Assembly (NCBI GenBank): GCA_002069975.1
Contig: MWCJ01000003.1
Span: 17,657 to 81,656 of the forward strand
From: Bacteroidetes bacterium ADurb.Bin217
GTDB lineage: Bacteria > Bacteroidota > Bacteroidia > Bacteroidales > UBA1715
Length of the DNA stretch: 64,000 nucleotides
Direction of reading: 5' to 3'
Shown here in pieces: positions 3,826 through 31,870 of this stretch; within the stretch, counting starts at the first letter, position 1; the number at the start of each line of letters is the position of its first letter. Position numbers and translations under genes: made by a program. The notes under the pieces were generated by a model, which was not told the origin of the DNA, did no database searches, and saw nothing but the letters and a program-made list of their open reading frames with translations.

Positions 3826-3883
3826 CGGGGTTCGTTGTCGTCAATCTGTAAGCCGTTAGAAAACTACACTTGTTTTCTTCCAT

Positions 3884-4480
3884 TCAGATAATTTTTTTTA
3901 ACGAATCGTTATCCCAATTTGCCGGATTGTTTATAATATATTCCGATATTTTCAAATATGATTGTTCATCGCGGATAATGTGTTCGTGGTAATTGCGTTG
4001 CCATAATTTGCCCATCGTTTCATTATTAATTTTAAAATAATTTCAAACATTCATTTGCCGCCAACGATTTGTATGACCCCACAATGTCGGATACCGTAGG
4101 GGCAACCCTCACGGTTGACCCATTATTGATTGATTCATTATTGATTCATTATTGGTTGACCAATTATACATATCATTTTGGGCAGGGGTGAACCCTGCCC
4201 CTACGGGAATTTCGTTCAATAAAATAATACCGTGAATATGGTTGGGCATTATTTGAAATACATCCAATTCAAAATTGGGAAATCGTTCGGGCAATTTTGC
4301 CCATTCGTTATATGCTACCATTCCCAATTCATTTAAAACCATTTCACTGTTTTTTATATGGCCAAACCTACAAATCCTGTCTTGACAACAAATGGTAATA
4401 AAATACAATCCTGCCTGCGAATAATCATAGCCTTTCAGGCGTATGCTGCGGCGATGATGTTTTTGCAGATTGTAGGTCAT
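3884..4480 (-). pseudogene. REP-associated tyrosine transposase (RAYT / IS200-like Y1 transposase), frame-disrupted
   Basis: The N-terminal fragment 4109..4480 carries the HUH motif (MPNHIHGIILL). The middle fragment 4032-4121 (RVAPTVSDIVGSYKSLAANECLKLF) is shifted by one base. The C-terminal fragment 3884-4042 (KLWQRNYHEHIIRDEQSYLKISEYIINNPANW) is back in the first frame. In-frame TGA codons occur at 4109-4111 and 4043-4045. Confidence 0.7.
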
Positions 4481-4505
4481 ATTGTCTTTCGTTTTTTCTA
4501 TTATT

Positions 4506-4610
4506 GGGTAGCCGCAAGGCTATCTACTCTCTATCGTATCTTTCAGGGGTAACCGCAAAGGCTACCCTTACGGCGTAGTCGACTCGTTGGGGCAACCCTC
4601 GCGGTTAGCC
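4506..4610. repeat. cluster of three GC-rich REP-like hairpins upstream of the RAYT remnant
   Basis: The three hairpins are GGGTAGCCGCAAGGCTATC (4506-4524), GGGGTAACCGCAAAGGCTACCC (4546-4567) and GGGGCAACCCTCGCGGTTAGCC (4589-4610). The last is a 19 of 22 direct copy of 4099-4120 inside the pseudogene. Confidence 0.45.
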
Positions 4611-4717
4611 TTATCGTACACTACCCTCTACATATACAGCACTCTTTCTTCCTTCACTTTCTGGTATTGAATAATGTATTTTTATGTGCGTTGACTATAC
4701 GATGTAAATTTTTTACT

Positions 4718-5095
4718 TCAATGGTACTTTTCATTTATTATTGATTCCAAAATTCCTCTACCTGCTTTAAATAATTCATCATCGAACCTCAAACCTCTTA
4801 TTGTTTGAATTTTTAATTCTGATTTATTATGTATTGATTCTATTGTATTTTTTAACCAATTTGAATCTTTCAATCGTTTTTCGACTAAAACACAAACTCT
4901 TTTAATATATTCAAAATCATTTTCTGTTAAATATCCTGTATTTGCTTGCTCTAAACTTCTCGGATTTACACCTAAGTCAAGTTCCGATTCAAATTGAGCA
5001 ATTCTGATAACTTTTCTAAGTAAAATCTCATTACCTTCTAATAATTCAAATCTCATTTGATTTATTTCGGATTGTCTGACATTATCATTGTTCAT
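4718..5095 (-). CDS. hypothetical protein (orphan, 125 aa)
   Basis: Clean ORF in a very AT-rich region. I recognise no motif. Confidence 0.45.
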   Translation of the reverse strand: MNNDNVRQSEINQMRFELLEGNEILLRKVIRIAQFESELDLGVNPRSLEQANTGYLTENDFEYIKRVCVLVEKRLKDSNWLKNTIESIHNKSELKIQTIRGLRFDDELFKAGRGILESIINEKYH

Positions 5096-5462
5096 AAAGT
5101 ATAAATATTGAAATACATATAATTTTTTTGGTATAAAATTCTCGTAAAAATCAAAACTAACATTTTTAATTTTATTTACATTTCAGCATTGTAATTAACT
5201 GATATTAATGTCTTTTTTTATCTTTCATTTTACGTTAGCGTTCTAGTTTGAACGCTGTTTGTAGTATAGATAATATAACGCTCAAAGTTTTCGCACCATA
5301 CCTTCGTAGCAGTATTTATCTCCAATGAACTCACTTTGTTCGAGTCGTGGTTCGCGTTCTGTCAACCGATAGAAAACTATACAAGCAAGCGAGAACAAAA
5401 TGCCTTACGAGACTACTGCCATGAGGCTTAGCGTGTGTTACCAGTTCGTGCAATTATTTCTA

Positions 5463-6095
5463 TTAAAAACTCATTCCTAAACCAACATTAAATATAGGTA
5501 ATATCATCCAATTATTTTTGATATTATCACTTGTTTTACTAAGAAAATAATCATTTTTTTCTTGGTCTGTATAAATATCTGAAATATATGGATATTTTAT
5601 ATTTGTTTCATTAACTGTTTCATTAATGATTTGTATTCCAGTTAAAATTGTAATATTCAATATTGAAAAATGTTTAGAATATCCAATACCATTTAATAAA
5701 CATATTTGTTTACTTGATTGATTATATGTGTTGGTAAAAAAATCTTCTGATATTTCTACATTACTTGCTAACACATCTCTATACATTATTCCAATTGAAT
5801 AAAACGGAAAATTTGTTTTGATTTTTGTTTTGATTTGCAATTCACTACTAAATTCAAAACCTTTCAAATTTCCTTGTGTTGTTCCGTAAGCAAAATCATT
5901 AATAGTTTTTCCACCATTTAATTTTATTAAAAATTTGCCAAAATCATATTTTATGTAAATACAATTATCGACAAATAAATTTGTCTCAACTCCAAAATTA
6001 ATATGTTTGACACTATCATTTTGAGAATATAAATGCATTGAAATACATATTAGTATTATTAATGTACTTATCTGTTTTCCTATTCTTTTTAGCAT
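5463..6095 (-). CDS. hypothetical secreted protein, possible small outer-membrane beta-barrel
   Basis: ORF trimmed to Met16. It has a signal peptide (MLKRIGKQISTLIILICISMHLYSQ) and alternating hydrophobic pattern, and ends in GLGMSF (aromatic C-terminus typical of OMPs). Confidence 0.5.
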   Translation of the reverse strand: MLKRIGKQISTLIILICISMHLYSQNDSVKHINFGVETNLFVDNCIYIKYDFGKFLIKLNGGKTINDFAYGTTQGNLKGFEFSSELQIKTKIKTNFPFYSIGIMYRDVLASNVEISEDFFTNTYNQSSKQICLLNGIGYSKHFSILNITILTGIQIINETVNETNIKYPYISDIYTDQEKNDYFLSKTSDNIKNNWMILPIFNVGLGMSF

Positions 6096-6099
6096 ACAA

Positions 6100-6612
6100 T
6101 TAAATGTTTTTTCTTTCTTTCTTATAAAACATATATGCATAACAGATACTCATGATTCCATTTAATGGATATTTTTTATCAATTAAATAAGAAATATGGA
6201 TATCCATATGTTTTTTTCTCATTCCAACTCGACTATTAAAACCATAAAATCCTTCAGCTGTACTTATAAAGTATTCAAATCCTATACTTGTATATATTCC
6301 AAACTTTTTTTTCGATTGATTTCCACATGCATAACCATAACTATATTCATATTTCAACGGAATATAATCAATTCCTAAAATAATGGGATATAATGGTATC
6401 AATGAAATTTCGGAACCAAGTGAAAAACTATTTTCATTATTTAAATTTAGAATTTTTATTGTATTGGCATACGTTACACTTGGTATCGGTATGTTATAAA
6501 TAATAAATGCTGTTATTCCTAAAGAATGATTGCTTTCATTTTGTGAGAATAACATTTTGGAATTAAACATTAATATTAAAAATACTGTTAAAATTGCAAT
6601 TCTATATTTCAT
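6100..6612 (-). CDS. hypothetical secreted protein
   Basis: Signal peptide MKYRIAILTVFLILMFNSKMLFSQ. The stop lies 4 nt before the start of the next ORF, which suggests an operon. Confidence 0.5.
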   Translation of the reverse strand: MKYRIAILTVFLILMFNSKMLFSQNESNHSLGITAFIIYNIPIPSVTYANTIKILNLNNENSFSLGSEISLIPLYPIILGIDYIPLKYEYSYGYACGNQSKKKFGIYTSIGFEYFISTAEGFYGFNSRVGMRKKHMDIHISYLIDKKYPLNGIMSICYAYMFYKKERKNI

Positions 6613-6644
6613 TTTATCATATTGAGCTTTCGGTTTAGCATGAC

Positions 6645-6784
6645 TGGTAATGTTTTGCAGCTACAAGAAGTTGGCGATTTCGAAGCACTAAACTGTCTGC
6701 CACCACCGAACTTGAGCCGAAGCACAAATGTTTATGTAACCACTGAACCGCCAATTTCTTGTAGGTGCTGTTAGCCACAGTTTT
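6645..6784. repeat. imperfect palindromic intergenic element (attC-like or REP-like)
   Basis: GCAGCTACAAGAAGTTGGCG (6657-6676) pairs with CGCCAATTTCTTGTAGGTGC (6749-6768). The element is flanked by GGTAAT (6646-6651) and GTTAGCC (6770-6776) and is visibly G+C-richer than the adjacent ORFs. Confidence 0.5.
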
Positions 6785-7443
6785 TATTTTCGGTTAGTTC
6801 TTGTTTCAATGTTGTTGTCACCAAATTGTTTGTCATTATATAACTGCTCATCATTTTTAAAAAATTTCTTCGATTCCTTCAAATAGTCTTTGTCAAGTTT
6901 TGCATTATCTGTTGTTTCTAAATATGTATAAGCTCTTTGAATAAATCTTCCTGCACCTTCAAATTGTTTACTCATAAAAAGTGTTCCGATTAAAGATACG
7001 TATGTTATAAACTCATATTGAATATGATTTCTTTTCAAATATTCAATTGGTAGTTTTTGATTCATACTTTGAAAGTGCGAAATTATTCCGATGTCTTTTA
7101 GGTATTTTTCTTTTTCAATAACAAACCAGTCATCCACTAATTCGCCATTGAGATTTGATTCGAGTTCGTAATATCCTATTGGCTCTAAATTGTCAAGCCA
7201 TTTTTGGTTTTCAACGTAAAGTCCAATTCTAGTTGTGATAATAGAAACACCATGTCTTCTGTCAATTCGATATTCAAAACCATCAAACTTTGTGATAATT
7301 TCATCTTGAATAAAACCACATAAAAAGTTCTTATCGTCTGAGTTGTCAGAAAATATTTTAGTGAGAGAGTCAAACGCAGTCTTTTTCAAGTCAAGCGTCT
7401 TAACTCTTTCTGTCAATAATATTTCTAGTTCGTGGTCTTTCAT
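6784..7443 (-). CDS. hypothetical protein (orphan, 219 aa)
   Basis: Clean ORF with no recognised motif. It is bracketed exactly by a 16 bp perfect inverted repeat (6769-6784 / 7444-7459). Confidence 0.5.
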   Translation of the reverse strand: MKDHELEILLTERVKTLDLKKTAFDSLTKIFSDNSDDKNFLCGFIQDEIITKFDGFEYRIDRRHGVSIITTRIGLYVENQKWLDNLEPIGYYELESNLNGELVDDWFVIEKEKYLKDIGIISHFQSMNQKLPIEYLKRNHIQYEFITYVSLIGTLFMSKQFEGAGRFIQRAYTYLETTDNAKLDKDYLKESKKFFKNDEQLYNDKQFGDNNIETRTNRK

Positions 7444-7464
7444 AAAACTGTGGCTAACATCCCA

Positions 7465-7484
7465 ATATCACCAATTGGTGATAT
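7465..7484. promoter_or_regulatory. perfect 20 bp palindrome, operator-like
   Basis: ATATCACCAATTGGTGATAT is its own reverse complement and lies 22-41 nt upstream of the ATG at 7443. An extra half-site-like CACCAAA follows at ~7498. Confidence 0.35.
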
Positions 7485-7739
7485 ATATTTTATATTTCAC
7501 CAAATATACCTAAAAATACCTATACACCAAACTAGGCAATACAAATATTTTTGTTGGATTTTCGAAACAAACAACAAAACCTACACAAAGTACATAAAAA
7601 ATCCCCGGCAAATTTTCGGATGTAGTTCAACACCGAATCAAGGTTGGTGAGTACTTCGACATGCTCAGTAACCACCTGTCGAACCGTGCAAGCCGCTCAG
7701 ATTTCTATGTATTATAGCCAGTGGTTATTCTATTTTTAC

Positions 7740-7859
7740 GGGAGTTCTAAAAATCCAATTTTCTGCGTTACGCAAATTTTGTAAAATCCTCATTTACTAG
7801 AGTAAACTGCGGTTTTCCAAAATTTGCAAGCCTTGAAACTTGTATTTTTAGAAGTTCCC
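7740..7859. repeat. 120 bp imperfect palindrome overlapping the 3' end of the Fic gene
   Basis: The 59 nt arms 7740-7798 and 7801-7859 are complementary at ~44 of 59 positions, centred on TTTACT-AG-AGTAAA. They include GCAAATTTTG and TTCTAAAAAT blocks. Confidence 0.5.
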
Positions 7860-8957
7860 TTTAAAAAATACTAATTCATAATTGGCATTTCGACCACCTT
7901 CACTTGTTTGTTTTAAAATACCTTTGTCTATCAAATCTTTTATATCACGTAAAGCTGTATCAGTAGAAGTTTTCGCAATTTTCGCCCATTTCGAAGTTTG
8001 CAATTTCCCTTCAAATCCGTCAAAAAGTTTATTAAGCATTAAGCGTTGTCGAGCGTTGATTACTGTTTGTTCATGCATTTTCCAAAACTCTGCCTTATGC
8101 AATATTCTTTGTGTTGTGTTTTCAGTAGCTAACATTGCGTTTTTTAGACATTGCAAAAACCATTCGAGCCATTCTGTTATGTCACCTTTACTAAATTGAA
8201 CTCTTTGCAATATTTCGTAATAGCGTTTGCGTTCAATTAATATCTGACTTGACATACTATAAAAACGTTCACCGCTATTTTCGGCACGTGCAAGCAACAT
8301 GTCAGTTATAGCACGTGCAATTCGACCATTTCCGTCATCAAATGGATGGATGATGATAAACCAAAAGTGTGCTATAGCAGCTTTTAGAACAGAATCAAGT
8401 GTTTGGTCATTATTAAACCAATTTAAAAACTTTTCCATTTCTTTTTTAACCATTTCAGGCTTAACAGCTTCGTAGTGTACTTTTTCTTTTCCCATTGCAC
8501 CAGAAACTACTTGCATTTTACCTTTACGGTACCTACCAACTTCTATTTCATATGGCCCACTAAATCCTGTTGGGAAAAGTGCTGCATGCCAACCAAACAA
8601 ACGTTTTTCGGTTAAAGGTAATGTGTAGCGCTGAGTAGCATCAAGCATCATTTCAACAACGCCCTCTATATGCCGGCTACTCTTTACAAGTCCTGCTGTA
8701 TTTATACCCAAACGCCGTGCTATGGATGAACGTACTTGTTCGTAATTGAGTAACTCGCCTTCAATTTCGGATGATTTTACTATGTCTAGTGTTAAGGCTG
8801 TAAGTGTAGCTTCTTCTTTAGCAGAGAATCCAAGAGCATTCATTTGTCCAATGATTTTTCCTTGCATTAACCGAACCTCTCCAAAAACCGCATTGATAGC
8901 TTTATCATCCCATGTAAAGTCTGTCCATTTTTTATATTCGTAAATGTATTTTATCAT
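7848..8957 (-). CDS. Fic family protein (class II, N-terminal inhibitory helix, C-terminal wHTH)
   Basis: Active-site motif HPFDDGNGRIARA and inhibitory motif S-x3-E-G in KSSEIEGE. The start is set at ATG 8957 (MIKYIYEYKKW); the TTG extension to 8981 overlaps the predicted promoter box. Confidence 0.85.
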   Translation of the reverse strand: MIKYIYEYKKWTDFTWDDKAINAVFGEVRLMQGKIIGQMNALGFSAKEEATLTALTLDIVKSSEIEGELLNYEQVRSSIARRLGINTAGLVKSSRHIEGVVEMMLDATQRYTLPLTEKRLFGWHAALFPTGFSGPYEIEVGRYRKGKMQVVSGAMGKEKVHYEAVKPEMVKKEMEKFLNWFNNDQTLDSVLKAAIAHFWFIIIHPFDDGNGRIARAITDMLLARAENSGERFYSMSSQILIERKRYYEILQRVQFSKGDITEWLEWFLQCLKNAMLATENTTQRILHKAEFWKMHEQTVINARQRLMLNKLFDGFEGKLQTSKWAKIAKTSTDTALRDIKDLIDKGILKQTSEGGRNANYELVFFKGNF

Positions 8958-8986: not shown

Positions 8987-9132
8987 CAAATTATTCTCCG
9001 CAAATATGCGGTGTTTATCCGATTTTTTTACCGCATTATTATGATTTCAACGAGTTGTCTACCATTGGCTATCTGCACCAACCTATCCACGAAGCACAAA
9101 TTTATTTTGTTTTTTTGAGCGTGGGCAAATAA

Positions 9133-9296
9133 GCGAAGCGATTCACGAACACCTATAAAAATAATCAACTCGTGAGTAATCCTAAAACCGTCCTGAAAGG
9201 CGGTTCCGTGAGCAGGAAAGGCGGAAGCTCTTTTGCAAGCCTTTGGTTTACTCACAATCTTTAATTGATATTCAAAGGTGTTCGTGAGGGCTTCGC
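9133..9296. repeat. 164 bp imperfect palindrome between COG2865 gene and Fic gene
   Basis: GCGAAGCGATTCACGAACACC (9133-9153) pairs with GGTGTTCGTGAGGGCTTCGC (9277-9296). The inner arms are CTCGTGAGTAA (9170-9180) and TTACTCACAA (9248-9257). Confidence 0.55.
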
Positions 9297-9439
9297 CGTT
9301 GAGCGTTGGCTCGTGTGGGATTGCAAATGTGCTTACGACTGTGCGTTGCTATCTTATTCTTTATCTTTTTTATCTTAATTAATATGCAAATATCCCCTAT
9401 AATTCAATGCTTTAAGTTTATACAATTCGAATTCTTATC

Positions 9440-11128
9440 TTAAATCTTATCTTTTTCTATCTTATTTGAAAGTACCCAAATCGGATTAGCTGTTGATTTA
9501 CTACTATTTTGAATTATTCCTTCTTTTTTAGACATATCATAAAGTAAATTACGAATCTTAGTTCTTTTTTGGTCTATAGAAAGAACATTTGATAATTTCT
9601 CCAATAACAAATCGTCAATTTCGGCTCTCGTAGCTTGTTTGTATTTGGTTAGAAATTCAACAACTAGTTTTCTATAATAATCCTTGTCAAATGCTTTGTT
9701 TTTAATGTATGACGCTTTATCGTCAGTTACTGCTGCTACAGATGCTGCTACATAAAAATTTGGTTTACGCCCTTCAATTAAATGTTCCTTTTTTAAGGTT
9801 GTAACAGCATGTTCTGTAATTGGTAGTTTCTTTTGAACTCTATCTATTAATACAACTCTTGATAGCGATAAGTCTTTACGTTCAATAAGTAATTTCGAAT
9901 AATTTTCGTCAATTGCATGACCGTATATTTGTAATACTACTTTTTGAGATTCTGAAAGTAAATAATCGGGAAGTGGAAAATATCTGTTGCGTTGAGCAAT
10001 ATACATTGTATGAATTCCATAACCTAAACGGTCTATCATACCCAAATTTACCATAGCATTTGCCAACCATGGATTACGGTATCGCTCGGGTGTTTTTTCG
10101 CCTTCGGAATATTCATCGGGATTACCTTCAAAAAAACTACCTGCATTGCTAAAAATAAGTTTATCTATCTTCTCGGTTACAATTATTCGACTATGAAACG
10201 AATAATCCTGATGAGCAATACAATTATGCATAGCTTCCAAAATTGAACGTGTATCATATTTATTTACAGTAGTAGCCAATAATTCATTGTCGGGAAAAAA
10301 TTTATATTTAACATTTCGAATGTTTTGTAAAACTTTGGTGGTATTCAATAAAAGCGGTGTTCCAAAATGCTCGTAAGCTTTTTCTTCGGTTTCAAGTTTC
10401 CACGTAATTTCGGCAATGGCAGGCAATAAATAGTGAGATGCTTCTTCTTTTCCTAAAAGAATTATAGCTGTATTTGTTATTTTTCCATTTATAGTAATCT
10501 TTGCTTTATCCAAAAATGTAGCTGTATCCCACAAATCAATTTCATCGAAAAATGAAGTTCTTGAACTTTTTTCCTTGAATTTCTCACGAGCAACTTTTAA
10601 TGCATTTTCATCTAAATCAGTAATGCTTGCCGTTTCAATAATTTTGGCACTCCAATCTTCTTGCGAATTGTATATAATGCGAACAAAATTAGCATGATTT
10701 CTTAAATCTGTTTTATTGCTACCAATTCTTATAAAAGGTTTCTTCTGAAAATTTGTAGGTTCGCCTTTAGCCGATGGAATACGAAGTAAAACGATATGTT
10801 TACCTTGATAATCGAACTCAAAAATTTCGAAGTTGATTTTTGGATACAACAAATTTCTCAACCAAAGTTCCAAATCCTGATTGCCTTGCTTAGCATTAGC
10901 GAAAGTAAAATTTGTACCTTTTACAATTAATGTTTCATCTTCTACACCCCATACCAAGTAGCCAAAAGGTTTATTTGCAATGGTTGCCCCATTACTCATA
11001 GCACTTAAATATTCGCCAATCTGCTCATTAGTAATACTCCCTTTATTGAGCTTAAACTCTAACCACTGCTGTTCTCGCGGTTGACTGCAAAGTTCTTGTA
11101 ATAATATGTGTAAATCAGATTCTGTCAT
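9440..11128 (-). CDS. COG2865-type protein: AlbA_2 (Schlafen-like) DNA-binding domain + HATPase_c_4-like domain + C-terminal wHTH
   Basis: The N-terminus has QQWLEFKLNKG...YLSAMSNG...GYLVWGVED, typical of AlbA_2. The ~560 aa architecture matches proteins commonly annotated as putative transcriptional regulator/RecG-like. Confidence 0.75.
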   Translation of the reverse strand: MTESDLHILLQELCSQPREQQWLEFKLNKGSITNEQIGEYLSAMSNGATIANKPFGYLVWGVEDETLIVKGTNFTFANAKQGNQDLELWLRNLLYPKINFEIFEFDYQGKHIVLLRIPSAKGEPTNFQKKPFIRIGSNKTDLRNHANFVRIIYNSQEDWSAKIIETASITDLDENALKVAREKFKEKSSRTSFFDEIDLWDTATFLDKAKITINGKITNTAIILLGKEEASHYLLPAIAEITWKLETEEKAYEHFGTPLLLNTTKVLQNIRNVKYKFFPDNELLATTVNKYDTRSILEAMHNCIAHQDYSFHSRIIVTEKIDKLIFSNAGSFFEGNPDEYSEGEKTPERYRNPWLANAMVNLGMIDRLGYGIHTMYIAQRNRYFPLPDYLLSESQKVVLQIYGHAIDENYSKLLIERKDLSLSRVVLIDRVQKKLPITEHAVTTLKKEHLIEGRKPNFYVAASVAAVTDDKASYIKNKAFDKDYYRKLVVEFLTKYKQATRAEIDDLLLEKLSNVLSIDQKRTKIRNLLYDMSKKEGIIQNSSKSTANPIWVLSNKIEKDKI

Positions 11129-11159
11129 TTTAATTTATAATAAAAATACTTGCAATATA

Positions 11160-13442
11160 TTATTTAATTTTTGCTTTCATAAGTTCTTCTATTGTAATAG
11201 CTTTTGGCTTTTTTATTACATCGAGGACATTTAGCTTTGTTAAATCAATGCTAATATCTTTAAATTCTTTTTCGCAATAATTTTCTAATTCATATACCAA
11301 ATACATTTTTTCGCTTGGGGTAGTTTTGTAATTTAATATATTTATTAACTCCGATTGCGAGCAAAATTTTGCACTATTATGTTTAAGTTTAAAAAATAAT
11401 TTTGATTCGGTTTGTTCTTTTGAATAAAGCAGTAAATATTGAGCACCAATTTCACTAGGGCTTAAGATATATCCGTTACCATAACGAATATTATACAAAC
11501 CTTTTTCTTTTATCCAACTTAAATGTCTATCATCTTTATAATAGCCCACCAACACATATGCTTCATTTGGTATTAATTTTTTGTTACCAATATATTCCGG
11601 AATAGGTTCGTTTAAAATATCGTTATCGTTTTTATTGTTTTTATGAATATCATAAATTTTAACAGCAGTATATTCTCTTTGCGAAGCTCTATCAATAAAG
11701 TTAGCAACAACCTTTTTTATAAAGTTTTTTAAATGCTCTTTATCTTTATCATCCTTATTTGGTTTAATTACAAAAGCTCCCAAACCAGGAATTAATTCAT
11801 GAAAACCTCTAAATGGTTCTTCTTTGCCTTCTCCTGGATATAATACATAAGCTCCGCCTGTTCTTCTGATAGCATCTTTATAGGCATGCATTTTAAGTAA
11901 ATCCTGATTTTTGAATGTTCCTTTTTTGCTTTCTTCTATTTCATCTTCGATTAGCTCATTATTCTCTTCCTCTGTTAGTTCTTCACCTTGTGGTTTAGAA
12001 ATTAACTCATAGAAATTATTTACCTTATATTTAGCATCGAAGTGTATATGAGTTATAAGTTCTTTACGTTCTGCTTCTTTAGAATCTTTTATTTCTTCTG
12101 GCCAAATTGACAAGGTGTAATCTGGTCTTAGAGTTGTTGTAAAACTTCCTCCATCGGGATATTTTCTCCCGCCTACAAATGAACGATTATAGCAAAATTG
12201 TATATTCAAATTTCTTGATGGTGATTTATATACACCTTTCATTGCAATAGCAGTACCTTGTTTTAAATTTAGCGATAATTGCCCTTTTTCATATTGAATT
12301 AATTCGGCAATACTCTTTGGTTCAATTTCAAATATTTCTTTTAACAAGTCTAATAATGTAAAAAATAACCAATACTCATAAAGTATAGCAATATGTTTTT
12401 TCCCAGCATCATACACATTGTCGCCACCATGCCAAATTAATTTAGCTGCTAAATCAAATTTTAGCCAAGCATTTAAAACTTCTCTGTAGCCGCTTTTTCT
12501 TTGAAGTATAGGGCTATTTAACTTTAATGATGTTGGTCTTGATATTTGTTTAAAAAAAGATTGATTTAATATCGACGAAATTTTAGTTGAAAGCAATCCT
12601 GATTCAAATTTAGCAGTTGAATACTTCTCGAATCGCAATTCGCAATTCTCACAGAAAAACAGAAATTCTTCTAATGCATGTTTTATAAAACGATTTTCTG
12701 CGGTGTCAATAGATTCGCATTTTCGTGTGCTGTCTATTTTTGTTGGAATAGAAGTTAACCCATATGATGTATTCAAGAAATGTTCTGTACTTATTTTCAT
12801 TCGGTTACTTTTTGTAACCAATTGTTTTATGTTCTTTTGATTGAATCTTCGTATGCTTCGTATGTCTTTTTCTTCATACTCTTCATGCCATTTTGTAGTA
12901 GGACTTGAAATAATTTTTTGTATTGCTTCTTCAAATTCTAAAGAATCAATTAATGATTTTACAAACGAAAACCTCTGATATAATGTTTCTGGATTTTTAT
13001 TAAAATCGGTTTCAAAATGTTGATTGATTGGGGAATCAATCTGCATTATTAAATCAGTGCATCGTTCGGTAATGCTCTCAAGCATATAGCGATAGTCTGA
13101 CCTATATTCACTTTTAACAGAACGAACTTCAATAGGTAATAAGATAGGCGAGCCATCTATTTCTAAAGAATGTGTACCTACGTATATATTGGGAATTATA
13201 CTCCCTTTATGTTTGCCGAATTTAGAATGTGTTATTATTAAATTCTTATTACTTTCTTCTTTAGGTTTAAAAAATACTGCTTCCTCCGAAAACTGATATT
13301 CATAAGAGCATCCTTCTAAAAGTTGATATTTTGCTTCACCAAATTGTATAACATCTTCATCAGAAATTTCAAAAAGCGTATTTACATCACCTTTAATTTC
13401 TAATACCAATCCTTGTTTAATATGATTAAGCTTAATTTTCAT
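11160..13442 (-). CDS. McrC-like PD-(D/E)xK nuclease subunit (DUF2357-type, 760 aa)
   Basis: Nuclease core LRPDYTL (about 12111-12133) and HFDAKYK (12024-12044). The start codon lies 2 nt after the McrB-like stop, giving the usual McrB-McrC gene order. Confidence 0.75.
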   Translation of the reverse strand: MKIKLNHIKQGLVLEIKGDVNTLFEISDEDVIQFGEAKYQLLEGCSYEYQFSEEAVFFKPKEESNKNLIITHSKFGKHKGSIIPNIYVGTHSLEIDGSPILLPIEVRSVKSEYRSDYRYMLESITERCTDLIMQIDSPINQHFETDFNKNPETLYQRFSFVKSLIDSLEFEEAIQKIISSPTTKWHEEYEEKDIRSIRRFNQKNIKQLVTKSNRMKISTEHFLNTSYGLTSIPTKIDSTRKCESIDTAENRFIKHALEEFLFFCENCELRFEKYSTAKFESGLLSTKISSILNQSFFKQISRPTSLKLNSPILQRKSGYREVLNAWLKFDLAAKLIWHGGDNVYDAGKKHIAILYEYWLFFTLLDLLKEIFEIEPKSIAELIQYEKGQLSLNLKQGTAIAMKGVYKSPSRNLNIQFCYNRSFVGGRKYPDGGSFTTTLRPDYTLSIWPEEIKDSKEAERKELITHIHFDAKYKVNNFYELISKPQGEELTEEENNELIEDEIEESKKGTFKNQDLLKMHAYKDAIRRTGGAYVLYPGEGKEEPFRGFHELIPGLGAFVIKPNKDDKDKEHLKNFIKKVVANFIDRASQREYTAVKIYDIHKNNKNDNDILNEPIPEYIGNKKLIPNEAYVLVGYYKDDRHLSWIKEKGLYNIRYGNGYILSPSEIGAQYLLLYSKEQTESKLFFKLKHNSAKFCSQSELINILNYKTTPSEKMYLVYELENYCEKEFKDISIDLTKLNVLDVIKKPKAITIEELMKAKIK

Positions 13443-13444
13443 TT

Positions 13445-15397
13445 TTATGCTTCAGCGTAACTTGCAAAACCATTTTCAACGGCATTTTTATACATTCTAC
13501 AAATTTTCTCGAATGAAAGCTTGTATTTAATATTAGAATCTGAATGTATCTCAGATTCTGTTAAGTTATTGCTAACAAATGTATCTAAGTAGTTTTCTTT
13601 AATCTGTGAATTATCGATTAAACAAAAACCACCTAATATGGGAAGAACTTTTGTAAGCTTGTTTCTTGAACCGTGCAATTTTGGTAATAATTTCTGCATT
13701 ATGGCAATATCAAGTAAGTTGTCGCCAGATTCGCCAAGTTCTTTTAGCATATGCATCAACCTTCCTATTTCACTTGCTGTTCTATATCCAAATTCAGCAC
13801 CCGATTTTTTTAATTCCGTAAAGAATTGTTTTAAATCTGCTTCATATTTTTTCAAATTCTTATTGGTTTGTTGTAATGCCATAGCCACAAAACTTTCAGC
13901 CATATTTGCCCCTTGCGTTTTTAGCAAATCCATGTCTAGTTTTATATCACTCGCAATAAATTCTTCTAAATCTTTTTCAGTTAATCTAAATTCTATGGTG
14001 TTAGCTCTATCTAAAACCTTAGGACTAAACATGTAGGTGGTTTCATCTATATTTACAGTTCCTATTATGAATAGATTTTTAGGTAGATTTATTGATTGTG
14101 GAATCTCATTTATTTCATTTTTAATTTTATGCAACGGTATCACATCGCCCGATTCCATAGTACTTAAAAAATCAGCAAAATATCGTTCAACATGACTTAA
14201 ATTCATCTCATCTAATATCAAAAAGTACGGTTTTGTAGGTTCCACTGTATTCTCAAAATTTTGCTTAGCTCTTATCATCAAATCTAAAACGCCACTTTCG
14301 GGGCTTACGTATTCTTCTTTATTTAATGCATTTGGATACCCTAGAAGTGGCTCACGGTTTGTCCAATCGGCACCAACTGGAACTATGCAATATTGTGATT
14401 TATCCGCTGAAATCCATTGCGCAAACGCTTGAGCCAGTTTTGTTTTACCGGAACCAGAAAGACCACTACATATTACAAATGGTTTTGTGCATAATGAGGC
14501 TACAAAGCGTTGAATAAGTTGTGGGGAGAAGATTAAGCCTGCTGCTTGAGTTGATTGATGTAAAGATTTAAAATTGAATTCTTTCTGTTTCTCTTGTAAA
14601 TTATCAATAAGTTCAAGTTTTATATTTTCATAATATGGTAAATAATTAGCAGATAATTTAAAATAAACTTCATTAATTATTGAAAACAATTCATTTGAAC
14701 AAGGAGTTAAATACGCTCCTTGCCTTAAATCAAGTTTTTTATTATAAAAAACTTCAGATGAATTAGTAATATTTAAAAGTTTAGATTTATATTTTTCATT
14801 TAGTATTTCTTGTCTTTCGATTTGTGGACTTAGCTGAATATAGTTTTCTAGTTCTACCAAATATGCTGGTCCATTCCATTCTGTACCTTCAATACCTATT
14901 GTTTCAATTGCCTTTTCTCTTACAATCGAGATACCTGATATATATTTATTATCAATTAGATGTATAATTAAATCACCTTTTTGAATTGACCGCATATTTT
15001 TATATATATCAGAACCACCTTTAGATTTTTGAGGAGACCATAATGCTTTACCTAAAGACCTATCACCTTCATTTCTATCAGGCCTACCAGAAACGATTGT
15101 TTTTTCAATCCAAATCTTTTGGTCATATGTTTTATTTTCCATTTTCTCAATAATAATTTTATATCCTTTTTTTAGTAAAAAGTCTTTTGCTTCAATAGCA
15201 TTAAAAGCTTTACTATCTAACATTTCATTATTTGCATATTTATTTGCAATACTAATTATATATTTTGGAGGTAATTTTTTATTTTTATATAATAAGTAAT
15301 ACTCCTTTGATAATCTATCTTTAGGTATTTCGAATTGTAAGACCTCTTTAATTGCATCTTCAATATTTTCAGTATTTATATTTTGGGGAATTGCCAT
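13445..15397 (-). CDS. McrB-like AAA+ GTPase with N-terminal DNA-reader-like domains
   Basis: Walker A GLSGSGKTKLA (~14436-14465), Walker B/McrB signature FLILDEMNLSHVERYFADFL, and GTVNIDETT...LDRANTIEF. About 290 aa of extra N-terminal sequence precedes these motifs. Confidence 0.85.
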   Translation of the reverse strand: MAIPQNINTENIEDAIKEVLQFEIPKDRLSKEYYLLYKNKKLPPKYIISIANKYANNEMLDSKAFNAIEAKDFLLKKGYKIIIEKMENKTYDQKIWIEKTIVSGRPDRNEGDRSLGKALWSPQKSKGGSDIYKNMRSIQKGDLIIHLIDNKYISGISIVREKAIETIGIEGTEWNGPAYLVELENYIQLSPQIERQEILNEKYKSKLLNITNSSEVFYNKKLDLRQGAYLTPCSNELFSIINEVYFKLSANYLPYYENIKLELIDNLQEKQKEFNFKSLHQSTQAAGLIFSPQLIQRFVASLCTKPFVICSGLSGSGKTKLAQAFAQWISADKSQYCIVPVGADWTNREPLLGYPNALNKEEYVSPESGVLDLMIRAKQNFENTVEPTKPYFLILDEMNLSHVERYFADFLSTMESGDVIPLHKIKNEINEIPQSINLPKNLFIIGTVNIDETTYMFSPKVLDRANTIEFRLTEKDLEEFIASDIKLDMDLLKTQGANMAESFVAMALQQTNKNLKKYEADLKQFFTELKKSGAEFGYRTASEIGRLMHMLKELGESGDNLLDIAIMQKLLPKLHGSRNKLTKVLPILGGFCLIDNSQIKENYLDTFVSNNLTESEIHSDSNIKYKLSFEKICRMYKNAVENGFASYAEA

Positions 15398-15400
15398 TTT

Positions 15401-15601
15401 TTACTTTTGATTTTTACTTGATACAATTAATTCTATCACATCAACATCTAAAATTTTAGCAATTTCATGCAGCACTTCAAGTCTTGGTTGTTGGCGGTTT
15501 TGCACATAACTATTTACCATATTATAGCTTTTGCCAAGTTGCTCTGCCAACCATGTTTGTTTAATGCCTTTTTTGTCTAGTACTTCTTTAATCTTGTTCA
15601 T
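15401..15601 (-). CDS. XRE-family helix-turn-helix regulator (controller-like, 66 aa)
   Basis: HTH_3 pattern KGIKQTWLAEQLGKSYNMVNSYVQNRQQP. The stop lies 3 nt upstream of the McrB-like start. Confidence 0.85.
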   Translation of the reverse strand: MNKIKEVLDKKGIKQTWLAEQLGKSYNMVNSYVQNRQQPRLEVLHEIAKILDVDVIELIVSSKNQK

Positions 15602-15621
15602 CGATTTACGAATTGAAGCTT

Positions 15622-15629
15622 CAAAAATA
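15622..15629 (-). promoter_or_regulatory. Bacteroidota -7 promoter box for HTH-McrBC operon
   Basis: The minus strand reads TATTTTTG, 21-28 nt upstream of ATG 15601. Confidence 0.35.
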
Positions 15630-15660
15630 GGTTTTTTATCTCATTTTTCAATATAAAATA

Positions 15661-15674
15661 TACAATTAATTGTA
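15661..15674. promoter_or_regulatory. perfect 14 bp palindrome, candidate operator (C-box-like)
   Basis: TACAATTAATTGTA is self-complementary and lies just upstream of the -7 box, in the position of a -33 element. Confidence 0.35.
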
Positions 15675-15692
15675 GCGTGTGTATTGGCAAAA

Positions 15693-15880
15693 TTACTCAC
15701 AATTATTTTTATTATTAAAATGTGTTCGTGAGCTCCCTGCGGTCGGTTGCACTCTTTGGCAAAGCATTGGTATGAGCGTTTGCTTGTGGGGCTTTGCCAA
15801 TGTGTGCAATGTGGGTGGGGTTTCTTTCTTTGCGGGGGGAAAGAAAAAAACAAAATAAATTTGGCTCCGCCGAGCTCCAC
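15693..15880. repeat. GC-rich structured intergenic element related to the 9248-9332 repeat
   Basis: TTACTCACAAT (15693-15703) and GTGTTCGTGAG (15722-15732) are exact copies of 9248-9258 and 9278-9288 with matching spacing. Internal stems are 15749-15765/15791-15807 (15 of 17), 15728-15742/15867-15880 and 15821-15828/15839-15846. Confidence 0.5.
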
Positions 15881-16322
15881 TTTGTTCCGGTTCCATCAAA
15901 TTTGCAATGTCCTGTCAAAAAGCTAAATCCTTTCTATCGTTATTAATTATCACTATCGTATCTGTCTGCTCGTCTGTCTTTACACTTGTTGCCAACTATT
16001 ATATACATCAATTTTCATCATACATAGTACAAATCCATAGTTTATCACAAAAATTAATACAATATTTTAATTTTCAAATGTACATAAAAATACTATCACG
16101 CCAAAAAGTTTAGAAAAAAATGATACTAGCGAAATACATATATTTGAATTCAAATAAATGTATACGTACATACCTTTTTCGGCTTATGATAAAAGCTAAG
16201 ACAGAGTATACCCCCTCCTACCTAAAGCCGGTTTTGCTAAGGCAATGATACTGGTTTTAAAAATTGGTTTTTGCCAAGACATACATTATACATAAAGCCA
16301 TCTGTAATCTCAAAAAAAACAT

Positions 16323-16384: not shown

Positions 16385-17482
16385 ATGGGATTAAAATGTG
16401 GAATAGTAGGCTTACCTAATGTAGGAAAATCAACTTTGTTTAATTGTTTAACAAATGCGAAAGCTCAAGCAGCAAATTTTCCGTTTTGTACAATTGAACC
16501 AAATATTGGAATGATAACCGTACCCGATAGTAGACTCAACGAATTGGAAACTATTGTAAAACCCGAACGAGTTGTTCCTACTACTGTAGAAATAGTAGAC
16601 ATAGCGGGTTTAGTAAAAGGTGCAAGTCGTGGCGAAGGATTGGGTAATAAATTTTTGGCAAACATACGCGAAACCGATGCTATTATTCATGTATTGCGTT
16701 GTTTCGAAAACGAAAATATAACCCATGTAGACGGCTCAATAAACCCGGTACGCGACAAAGAAACTATAGACACCGAATTGCAACTGAAAGATTTAGAAAC
16801 TATAGAAGGTAGAATTCAGAAAGTAAAAAAACAAGCTCAAACCGGTGGCGACAAAGAAGCTAAATACGTGTACGATATTTTGGAACGGGTAAAAAAACAT
16901 GTAGAAGCCGGTAAGTCGGTACGAAGTTTAGGATTAGACGATAATGAAATACAAGCAATATACGATTTGCATTTAATTACCCTAAAACCGGTAATGTATG
17001 TGTGCAACGTAGACGAATCGGGAATCAAAGGAAATGCTCATGTAGAGGCATTGAAACAATCGGTTGCTCAAGAACAAGCAGAGGTTTTGGTTCTTGCTAC
17101 AGCTATAGAAGCCGAAATTGCCGAACTCGAAGATCCCGAAGAACGTCAATTATTTTTACAAGATATTGGGCTTGAAGAACCCGGTTTAAACAAACTTATA
17201 CGCACTGCTTATAGCTTACTGAATTTAGAAACATATTTCACCGCAGGTGTTAAAGAAGTAAGAGCATGGACGTATCACAAAGGGTTTAAAGCTCCACAGG
17301 CTGCGGGCGTAATTCACTCCGATTTTGAACGTGGATTTATAAAAGCAGAAGTTATAAAATTTGCCGATTTTATTAAATATGGCTCGGAACAAGCGGTAAA
17401 AGAAGCGGGTAAAATGGCAATGGAAGGAAAAGAATATATAGTGCAAGACGGTGATATAATGCACTTTAAATTTAATGTATAA
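16385..17482 (+). CDS. ychF: redox-regulated ribosome-binding ATPase YchF
   Basis: The start is reset to [20 protein letters not shown] (P-loop). The TGS-like C-terminus is [11 protein letters not shown], and the resulting 365 aa is the canonical length. Confidence 0.95.
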
Positions 17483-17485
17483 AGT

Positions 17486-18100
17486 ATGGAAATGACAGAT
17501 TCCATAATATCAATACTCGACTTTACGGGTACTTTTGCCTTTGCGGTAAGCGGGGCATTGGCTGCTGCCGAAAAAAAGTTTGATTTGTTTGGTGCTGTTT
17601 TTCTTGGATTTGTTACTGCTATAGGTGGTGGTACCATGCGCGACATGATGTTGGGCAATACTCCGGTAGCTTGGTTGCATGATATTCGTATTTTTTACAC
17701 TATTGTTATAGCTGTAGTATTTACATTTTTGTTTCGTCCCACTATTATACGTTTTACCAAAGCATTGTTTTTGTTCGATACTATAGGCATAAGCGTATTT
17801 ACTATTATAGGATTACAAAAAGGTTTAGGAGTAGATATTCACGCACCTATTGCTGTAATGATGGGAATAACAACTGCGGTAATGGGAGGAATTATTCGCG
17901 ATGTTTTATGCAACGATATTCCGCTTATTTTTCATAAAGAAATATATGCAACTGCATGTTTGCTTGGCGGGATTATTTATTTGGGATTATTATACCTTAA
18001 TGTTTCTGAATCTATTATTATAGTAACTGCAGCTACATCTATTTTTATAGTTCGCACACTCAGCGTTCGGTATAAATGGTCGCTTCCTAAATTTAAATAG
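17486..18100 (+). CDS. trimeric intracellular cation channel family protein (UPF0126/YadS-like)
   Basis: Two repeats with GGGTMRD / GGIIRDV motifs and seven predicted hydrophobic helices. Confidence 0.8.
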   Translation: MEMTDSIISILDFTGTFAFAVSGALAAAEKKFDLFGAVFLGFVTAIGGGTMRDMMLGNTPVAWLHDIRIFYTIVIAVVFTFLFRPTIIRFTKALFLFDTIGISVFTIIGLQKGLGVDIHAPIAVMMGITTAVMGGIIRDVLCNDIPLIFHKEIYATACLLGGIIYLGLLYLNVSESIIIVTAATSIFIVRTLSVRYKWSLPKFK

Positions 18101-31747: not shown

Positions 31748-31835
31748 CATTAATTTGAATTTTCTTTTTTTACCATTGTGTGTAAAATCTCACAAACTTT
31801 ATAGAACGAACGTTACTCACATTGAACATTTTTTT

Positions 31836-31843
31836 TATATTTG
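31836..31843 (+). promoter_or_regulatory. Bacteroidota -7 promoter box
   Basis: TATATTTG lies 28 nt upstream of ATG 31871. Confidence 0.35.
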
Positions 31844-31870
31844 CAATATATACAATAACATAAAACATAC

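Follow-up and report, generated by a model that had tools for sequence, protein, structure and literature searches.

Direct repeats, called copies B and C here, bracket a four-gene restriction-like module in the DNA that we analyzed, a 64-kb stretch of contig MWCJ01000003.1 of Bacteroidetes bacterium ADurb.Bin217 (the window, by which we mean the whole of this stretch). On balance, we favor the view that B, C and a third, inverted copy, A, are old copies, now diverged, of a mini-element dispersed between genes in Bacteroidota, and not scars of the module's insertion. The element is a unit of ~55 nt that is found singly, in tandem and in inverted pairs in ordinary intergenic DNA, whatever the neighboring genes, and sites with and without it show that it is a discrete inserted piece of DNA. 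The enclosed genes, judged from their predicted domains, would make up a McrBC-type (type IV) module, in which a McrB-like AAA+ protein is encoded beside a McrC-like nuclease.

The repeats at the module borders and their family

An earlier note on this DNA had described two exact 11-mers, spaced 19 nt apart in the left copy and 18 nt in the right and followed by a second related block with 29 extra nt on the right, with both copies in one orientation around exactly the helix-turn-helix (HTH), McrB-like, McrC-like and COG2865 genes. Direct reading of the sequence bears out each of these points. TTACTCACAAT lies at 9248-9258 and 15693-15703 and GTGTTCGTGAG at 9278-9288 and 15722-15732, and each 11-mer has exactly two plus-strand occurrences in the window. 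The second block (9300-9331 versus 15773-15804) is 81% identical over 32 nt, and the gap between GTGAG and GAGCG is 12 nt in the left copy and 41 nt in the right copy, which accounts for the 29 extra nt. B and C lie on the plus strand, around exactly four minus-strand genes (Table 1). The similarity of B and C is far above chance. Overlooked in that note were the inverted copy A and a 20-nt inverted repeat that lies farther out.

When the window was searched with a profile built from 120 distinct copies of other genomes, A, B and C were the only significant matches. A half copy at 31813-31837, where relatives have ychF, was set aside as insignificant (E = 0.7). We also rejected a coding reading of copy C, which is overlapped by a 59-amino-acid (aa) JGI open reading frame (ORF; 15679-15858, plus strand): since the spacer is 19 nt in one copy and 18 nt in the other, and 16-24 nt in the family, the frame shifts and is lost in copy B, and the ORF is probably spurious. 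Copies A and B form an imperfect palindrome of ~165 nt, the DNA fold of which (-38.1 kcal/mol, z = -4.7) was equaled in stability by 0 of 200 shuffles. Positions 9071-9216, which hold copy A and one arm of the 20-nt inverted repeat, are 90% identical over 147 nt to a locus of another Bacteroidales species, where an ImmA/IrrE-like gene and an orphan gene flank the counterpart (L058; L-numbers denote fetched loci that carry the element or were compared for it).

The same unit occurs far beyond the window. A scan of species-representative genomes with the pattern TTACTCAC-N16-24-AKGTGTTCGTGAR found at least 119 stretches, compared with a chance expectation of ~10 (our own estimate, assuming uniform base composition). 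Nearly all of the matches listed are from Bacteroidota (Bacteroidales, Flavobacteriales, Chitinophagaceae, Sphingobacteriia and Saprospiraceae), joined by Ignavibacteria, and we suspect that the few listed matches labeled as other phyla are mis-binned metagenome-assembled genomes (MAGs). Multiple copies spread over contigs were found in several MAGs, such as the lake MAG JAPLDU01 (at least six contigs) and MAG JAVHRE01 (at least five). The unit, which can be written as the block pair TTACTCAC...AAAGGTGTTCGTGAG, consists of TTACTCAC, 16-24 AT-rich nt ending in AAAG, AAAGGTGTTCGTGAR or GTGTTCGTGAR, and ~15 variable nt; this tail is often palindromic, and the whole is bounded by TT(A). Motif-anchored profiles give TTACTCAC with a weakly conserved preceding base, a spacer with the consensus ..TTATTTTTAAAG, GTGTTCGTGAR and ~15 nt ending in TT, with a motif length of 37-41 nt in 95% of copies. 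As the search pattern fixed both blocks, their invariance across the family is not measurable from this set.

The element is nearly always intergenic. The 149 ORFs nearest to it fall into 189 Pfam families, mostly of housekeeping function (DnaB, desaturases, ABC transporters, peptidases), with no recurrent neighbor and no recurring transposase among them. There is a strand bias, both flanking genes being opposite to the motif in 40 cases and along it in 17, and convergent gene contexts outnumber divergent ones (19 versus 9). Most copies are single; head-to-tail tandems with the common junction ...ctaagTTACTCAC occur at three loci (L010, L044 and L124), and inverted pairs are formed at L035 and by A and B in the window. 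Viral contigs yielded a single match, and an association with phages was dropped.

Copies B and C also adjoin a rarer second repeated block, AGCGTTGGC ... CAAATGTG, and their extensions contain TGTGCGGTGG-like sequence as well. AGCGTTGGC and TGTGCGGTGG each accompany ~9% of family copies, whereas their frequency in random 170-nt stretches drawn from these loci is 1-3%. These motifs recur, together with GTGTAGCG, in one locus where the element lies inside more than 1.3 kb of G+T-rich non-coding DNA (L030, 950-2450, minus strand), a stretch that repeats all three as short motifs; all three are found in the extensions of B and C. That the G+T-rich stretch is a tandem array was ruled out.

Folding gave no clear sign that an RNA structure is conserved. 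In the consensus fold, the one pairing with support is CTCAC/GTGAG, itself preset by the search pattern, and the short 3′ hairpin hardly outdoes its shuffles (-2.0 versus -1.6 kcal/mol). Rfam 15 gave no match in the window or in 100 kb of element loci, searches in E-value mode returning chance-level matches only, and a tRNA scan was negative. A literature search with the motif sequences returned only coincidences with primers, and among the titles and abstracts of papers on Bacteroidetes repeat families there was none that describes the element. As judged by Rfam and these limited literature checks, the family appears to be undescribed. Possible likenesses to DnaA boxes, the Mpi invertase repeat (ARACGTWCGT), extracytoplasmic function (ECF) and sigma-54 promoters, and tRNA T-arms seem unconvincing.

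Filled and empty sites and the attachment-site reading

The clearest view of the element as inserted DNA comes from a lake MAG in which the unit lies within a composite repeat of ~300 nt with ends like TTAGTCTGTCCATAA and TTAGTGTTTGTCTTTAA (L027, L031, L034, L051, L093, L094, L107 and L124). The unit entered either arm of this repeat at ...ga/TTAACGATT (the slash marks the insertion point), and filled and empty arms coexist in one genome. Type 1 arms read ...aagaacaagga/TTACTCAC...GTGTTCGTGAGatcgcttcactaag/ttaacgattt... when filled and ...aagaacaagga/ttaacgattt... when empty; type 2 arms read ...cgaatatcga/TTACTCAC...GTGTTCGTGAAatcgcttcgctaag/ttaacgatt... and ...cgaatatcga/ttaacgatt..., respectively. 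The inserted piece is 54-55 nt long, with TTA (or TT, or TA) repeated on both sides. A second comparison involves two IS200-like tnpA genes. At L007, a copy lies 2 nt from the tnpA start codon, and the unit plus ~45 nt stands between that codon and a hairpin of the repetitive extragenic palindrome (REP) type. At L190, which has a 67% identical tnpA, the same REP hairpin (AGCTCCGTAGGAGCG.CCTGT) directly precedes the ATG and the element is absent. L007 therefore holds an insertion of ~105 nt bounded by TTAC...TTAC. Because of the filled and empty sites and the L007/L190 comparison, we conclude that the element is mobile, now or formerly.

What kind of enzyme moves it? The short target repeat would suggest a DDE transposase, whereas the Y1 transposase genes found near some copies and a likeness to IS608 would suggest an HUH enzyme. 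That candidate likeness is between the 5′ TTAC of the element and the AAAG before its second block on one side and, on the other, the cleavage site and guide tetranucleotides of IS608. The ends of the element, CTCAC... and ...CTAAG, are not inverted repeats.

A reading of B and C as attL and attR of a 6.4-kb island inserted by an integrase fits their direct orientation and their exact bracketing of four genes, and scars of site-specific insertion were among the origins proposed in the earlier note. We consider it highly improbable, and the reading is largely refuted by the data. B and C share 65% identity over 68 nt, whereas the median identity to foreign copies is 70% for each; 104 of 120 foreign copies are closer to B, and 97 of 120 closer to C, than the two are to each other. 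As most foreign copies resemble each of them more than B resembles C, the two are not products of the duplication of one site when the module was inserted. Their identity is limited to the family-invariant blocks, and at least 119 unrelated loci carry the same element. A Pfam scan of the enclosed genes found no recombinase, integrase, excisionase or transposase between the repeats. No recombinase is encoded in the module or by the adjacent genes, which are fic and ychF, and there was no integrase among the Pfam results for the scanned ORFs of the window or among the families listed (top 25 of 77). The earlier note had also considered successive attC-like sites of one family. This holds broadly, in that the repeats belong to one dispersed family; it fails for integron attC sites, as direct reading finds neither RYYYAAC nor GTTRRRY boxes in B and C and no integrase was found among the scanned genes. 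Insertion into a pre-existing repeat, the third origin named there, or recombination between such repeats is conceivable.

The module, its relatives and the origin of its borders

Table 1. Features at the module and its borders (positions in the window)
Feature	Position	Strand	Details
Left arm of perfect 20-nt inverted repeat	9097-9116	-	AAAAAAACAAAATAAATTTG; points to fic
Copy A, inverted	9125-9182	-	TTACTCACGAG, 16 nt, GTGTTCGTGAA, then tcgcttcgcttattt; nhmmer E = 9.9e-11 with the profile from other genomes
Imperfect A/B palindrome	9133-9297		Self-alignment; 68 nt separate the cores
Copy B	9245-9299	+	TTACTCACAAT, 19 nt, GTGTTCGTGAG, then ggcttcgccgtt; nhmmer E = 2.9e-10, same profile
Extension of copy B	9300-9350	+	GAGCGTTGGCTC hairpin, then TTGCAAATGTGC, TGTGCGTTGC
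Copy C	15690-15750	+	TTACTCACAAT, 18 nt, GTGTTCGTGAG, then ctccctgcggtcggtt; nhmmer E = 4.6e-13, same profile
Extension of copy C	15773-15815	+	GAGCGTTTGCTTGTGGGGCTTTGCCAATGTGTGC plus the bases after it
Right arm of 20-nt inverted repeat	15844-15863	+	Same 20-mer; points to 520-nt spacer and ychF
DUF4172-Fic gene, SoFic-like, left neighbor	7848-8957	-	Pfam; PADLOC SoFic, E = 3e-46
COG2865-like protein, 562 aa	9440-11128	-	Pfam Schlafen AlbA_2, HATPase_c_4
McrC-like protein, 760 aa	11160-13442	-	Pfam DUF2357 and PD-(D/E)XK nuclease (PDDEXK_7)
McrB-like AAA+ protein, 650 aa	13445-15397	-	PADLOC PDC-M26A, E = 8.5e-53; weak match to E. coli McrB (PDB 6hz4, E = 8e-4)
Leading gene of the module, Xre-type HTH, 66 aa	15401-15601	-	Pfam HTH_3, HTH_26
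ychF, right neighbor	16385-17482	+	

Relatives of the enclosed genes occur elsewhere without the repeats. Homologues of the McrC-like protein with 76-82% identity pair with other McrB-like proteins (MrcB_N, EVE or AAA_5). The loci of those with 76-81% identity (L226-L232), which represent three genomic contexts, contain no element, no HTH gene and no COG2865 gene. The family of the HTH protein is very large (7956 matches at E ≤ 1e-10, many of them 85-97% identical), and its members head varied defense modules, such as two Dcm methylases with a McrBC-like pair, or a type I HsdM (L035). The element is absent from 18 loci, of two module kinds, that carry ~90% identical HTH homologues. HTH homologues elsewhere (L217-L225 and L233-L241) have a palindromic, operator-like upstream site, such as TATCTCAataagTGAGATA. 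Conversely, 118 of the 119 element loci have no HTH homologue. The earlier note had named modules lacking the repeats as an observation that would count against a tie between the two, and homologous modules of this kind were found.

Could a locus without the module reveal how it came to lie between fic and ychF? Exact matches to the YchF and Fic proteins were found on eight contigs from at least five samples; five of the six contigs listed reach the module, and all five carry it. No Fic-ychF junction without the module was found among the conspecific contigs and the relatives examined. In species with 96% and 95% YchF identity, ychF and glyT (the gene of the glycine transporter family beside ychF) lie between a UvrA-like gene and a gene for a 164-aa protein. 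In the window these two genes are adjacent (31748-31870), and ychF-glyT is at 16385-18100. A species with 84% YchF identity has a third ychF-glyT arrangement (L206-L212 and L213-L215 were compared). Since ychF neighborhoods differ among relatives, the junction may never have existed in those available. Among the matches listed in a metagenome scan for YchF, relatives were at most 75% identical and none had the element, and 1.1 Mb of sequence around ychF in more distant Bacteroidales gave no match to its profile.

If the element is dispersed, as we favor, it would be a non-autonomous sequence resembling a REP or one of the miniature inverted-repeat transposable elements (MITEs) and moved in trans by some transposase. 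Its copies would have gathered in the non-coding borders of an accessory region (~3.8-16.3 kb) that comprises a pseudogene resembling a REP-associated tyrosine transposase (RAYT), orphan genes, fic and the module. The module would thus be bracketed by repeats because they collect at such borders, and not because they are att sites. Several observations weigh against this interpretation. All three copies in the window sit at the borders of this module and none elsewhere in the 64 kb, which exceeds random scatter; B and C share an extended architecture found near only ~9% of family copies; single units fold weakly, shuffles of the forward strand being as stable; and no transposase among the nearest genes is tied to the element. 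Dispersal within the source genome is something we infer from other genomes. Finally, at L035, in a Fermentimonas MAG, a 78% identical HTH gene has the element ~126 nt upstream, pointing away from it as copy C does, with upstream DNA that is partly homologous and different cargo after the HTH gene (the type I HsdM). This arrangement is a hint that HTH-led cassettes and the element are connected.

An alternative that draws on the same observations is that family copies are crossover sites. The module would have arrived with one copy beside its HTH gene and undergone recombination with a copy in the chromosome, be it homologous recombination across the blocks that are conserved or the work of a site-specific enzyme, leaving B and C as hybrid direct copies and making such elements landing pads for defense cassettes. 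The direct orientation of B and C, their shared, rarer architecture and their exact bracketing of four genes would all be explained, as would L035, where the HTH gene and element keep company with other cargo. The divergence of B and C is compatible with an exchange in which two different members of the family recombined, close relatives have the locus in another arrangement, and a Fic homologue (83% identical) adjoins another family copy in a Flavobacteriales MAG, with a different gene order (L008). We nevertheless think this scenario unlikely. No recombinase is encoded in or next to the module, and the sole nearby Y1 gene is a frameshifted pseudogene associated with GTAG-type hairpins; the invariant blocks, with their 8 and 12-14 nt, offer little length for recombination that depends on RecA; and most family copies lie beside housekeeping genes, while the 18 HTH-led loci and the three McrBC-like contexts mentioned above lack the element.

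It is also conceivable, but quite improbable, that the element is cis-regulatory DNA, such as an operator, insulator or terminator, which might be bound by the Xre-type HTH protein or a host factor and would regulate the module as well as the genes beside it. Copy C is upstream of the HTH start, at a distance of 92 nt, and this arrangement and part of the upstream region (TTTTATATTGAAAAATGAGATA) are kept at L035. A promoter-like TTTG-N21-TAAATTTG directed at fic has copy A 15-25 nt upstream of it, and the counterpart at L058 is arranged likewise. The strand bias across genomes (40 versus 17) also fits a regulatory role. The insertion behavior seen in filled and empty sites and in tandems does not, nor do neighbors of every kind, nearly always without an HTH homologue. 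HTH homologues of other loci come with an operator-like site of their own and lack the element, there is no match to known RNA families, and a conserved secondary structure lacks clear support.

The promoter-like sequence just mentioned belongs to the perfect 20-nt inverted repeat, the arms of which lie outside all three copies and bracket the module. Each arm contains TAAATTTG, preceded by TTTG at a distance of 21-23 nt (21 nt in the arm facing fic). By inference from the published Bacteroidetes -33/-7 consensus, the arms resemble outward-facing Bacteroidota promoters directed toward fic and ychF. Across all fetched loci, the 20-mer is confined to the source species, apart from one near copy at L058. 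Its orientation is identical in five independent contigs, with no sign of inversion.

The surrounding accessory region and known repeat systems

The RAYT-like (Y1/IS200-like) pseudogene lies 4.6 kb away, at ~3830-4480 on the minus strand, and has two frameshifts. Its N-terminal part, with an HUH motif (HIH), and its C-terminal WQRNYHEHIIR share one frame, and the middle (VAPTVSDIVGSYKSL) is in another; when reconstructed, it matches REP_Tyr_transpos (1.5e-16) and Y1_Tnp (2e-5). GTAG-type REP-like hairpins inside the pseudogene and just upstream of it (4096-4125 and 4505-4620; GTAGGGGCAACCCTCACGGTTGACCC and GGGTAGCCGCAAGGCTATC) are unrelated to the TTACTCAC element. Between the pseudogene and fic, at 4700-7500, are four orphan genes (125, 225, 170 and 219 aa) of 22-31% GC, none of which matches a Pfam, NCBIfam or PADLOC family; the block is probably foreign DNA. 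On the other side of the module, the 780-nt non-coding stretch upstream of ychF contains a 30-nt near-perfect palindrome (16134-16163, ATACATATATTTGAATTCAAATAAATGTAT).

Four other loci have RAYT homologues no more than 8 kb from the element, a frequency about three-fold that of control loci. Counting Y1 genes, whether RAYT-like or IS200-like, there is ~1 per 160 kb in element loci and 1 per 550 kb in control loci; those near the element are in the window and at L007, L056, L067, L069 and L071. This enrichment is weak evidence for a connection. As for L190, at least five REP-like hairpin units (AGCTCCGTAGGAGCGCCCTGTTTGTAGA) lie directly upstream of its IS200-like tnpA (7600-7880), with similar hairpins downstream, so that it has the look of a classic REP/RAYT locus, here from a different Bacteroidota genome.

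How does the element compare with described repeats? Like the REPs, bacterial interspersed mosaic elements (BIMEs) and REPIN-RAYT systems of Enterobacteria and Pseudomonas, it is short, extragenic and multicopy, occurs as singlets, tandems and inverted doublets with long hairpins (A and B), forms mosaics with other short motifs and can have Y1 genes in its vicinity. REPs are each restricted to one species or genus and consist of GC-rich palindromes that have perfect stems and a GTAG or CGTC tag. The element, in contrast, pairs over only 5 bp (CTCAC/GTGAG), with an AT-rich loop between, its doublets follow no fixed architecture, and its two blocks are identical across several Bacteroidota orders, in a set for which the search pattern fixed them. 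As it has no stable palindrome, its arrangements are mixed and the RAYT-like pseudogene of the window is accompanied by other hairpins, the element does not fall within the REP/REPIN-RAYT class.

The resemblance to MITEs and similar repeats (Correia/NEMIS of Neisseria, ERIC, RUP and BOX) is that of a non-coding, non-autonomous, intergenic sequence that shows both filled and empty sites, has a short target repeat of A/T (TT or TTA) and is sometimes nested in composite repeats and sometimes beside promoters. Discrete insertion and, in other MAGs, many copies per genome were found; terminal inverted repeats and a parent insertion sequence were not. Typical MITEs are 100-400 bp long, whereas the element is ~55 bp and its CTCAC/GTGAG repeat is internal at the 3′ side. 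The position of the L007 copy, 2 nt from a tnpA start codon, invites comparison with the ends of IS200/IS605 elements and with the miniature derivatives of these, palindrome-associated transposable elements (PATEs). However, L190 has tnpA and the REP hairpin without the element, so the L007 copy is an insertion and not the left end of an insertion sequence. Also unlike IS200/IS605, the empty sites (gga/ttaacg) lack TTAC and no stable subterminal hairpin is conserved. Like integron attC or integrase att sites, B and C are direct repeats of one family around a gene cassette and have imperfect internal symmetry. Unlike such sites, they are unmatched, the RYYYAAC/GTTRRRY ends are missing, the family is found mostly beside core genes and neither IntI nor another integrase is encoded among the scanned genes.

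A broader proposal, which we regard as quite doubtful, is that the unit is an undescribed, phylum-wide mobile mini-element, the blocks of which would be kept invariant across Bacteroidota orders by a protein partner, possibly a domesticated Y1/HUH transposase. Its copies would be landing pads for HTH-led cassettes and fic, and thus a counterpart of BIME or attC-type borders.

When direct repeats surround a defense island, att sites come readily to mind. In the present case, the repeats belong to a dispersed family and therefore say little about how the module arrived. Such repeats can also break metagenome assemblies and mislead programs that call island boundaries, and the element may promote rearrangements around ychF in the source lineage. 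If its copies truly mark the borders of cassettes, they would aid in finding accessory regions of uncultured Bacteroidota. The family is unusually small and conserved, and it is the part of this locus that is of real interest, since an element of ~55 bp with blocks identical across orders implies a conserved partner protein.

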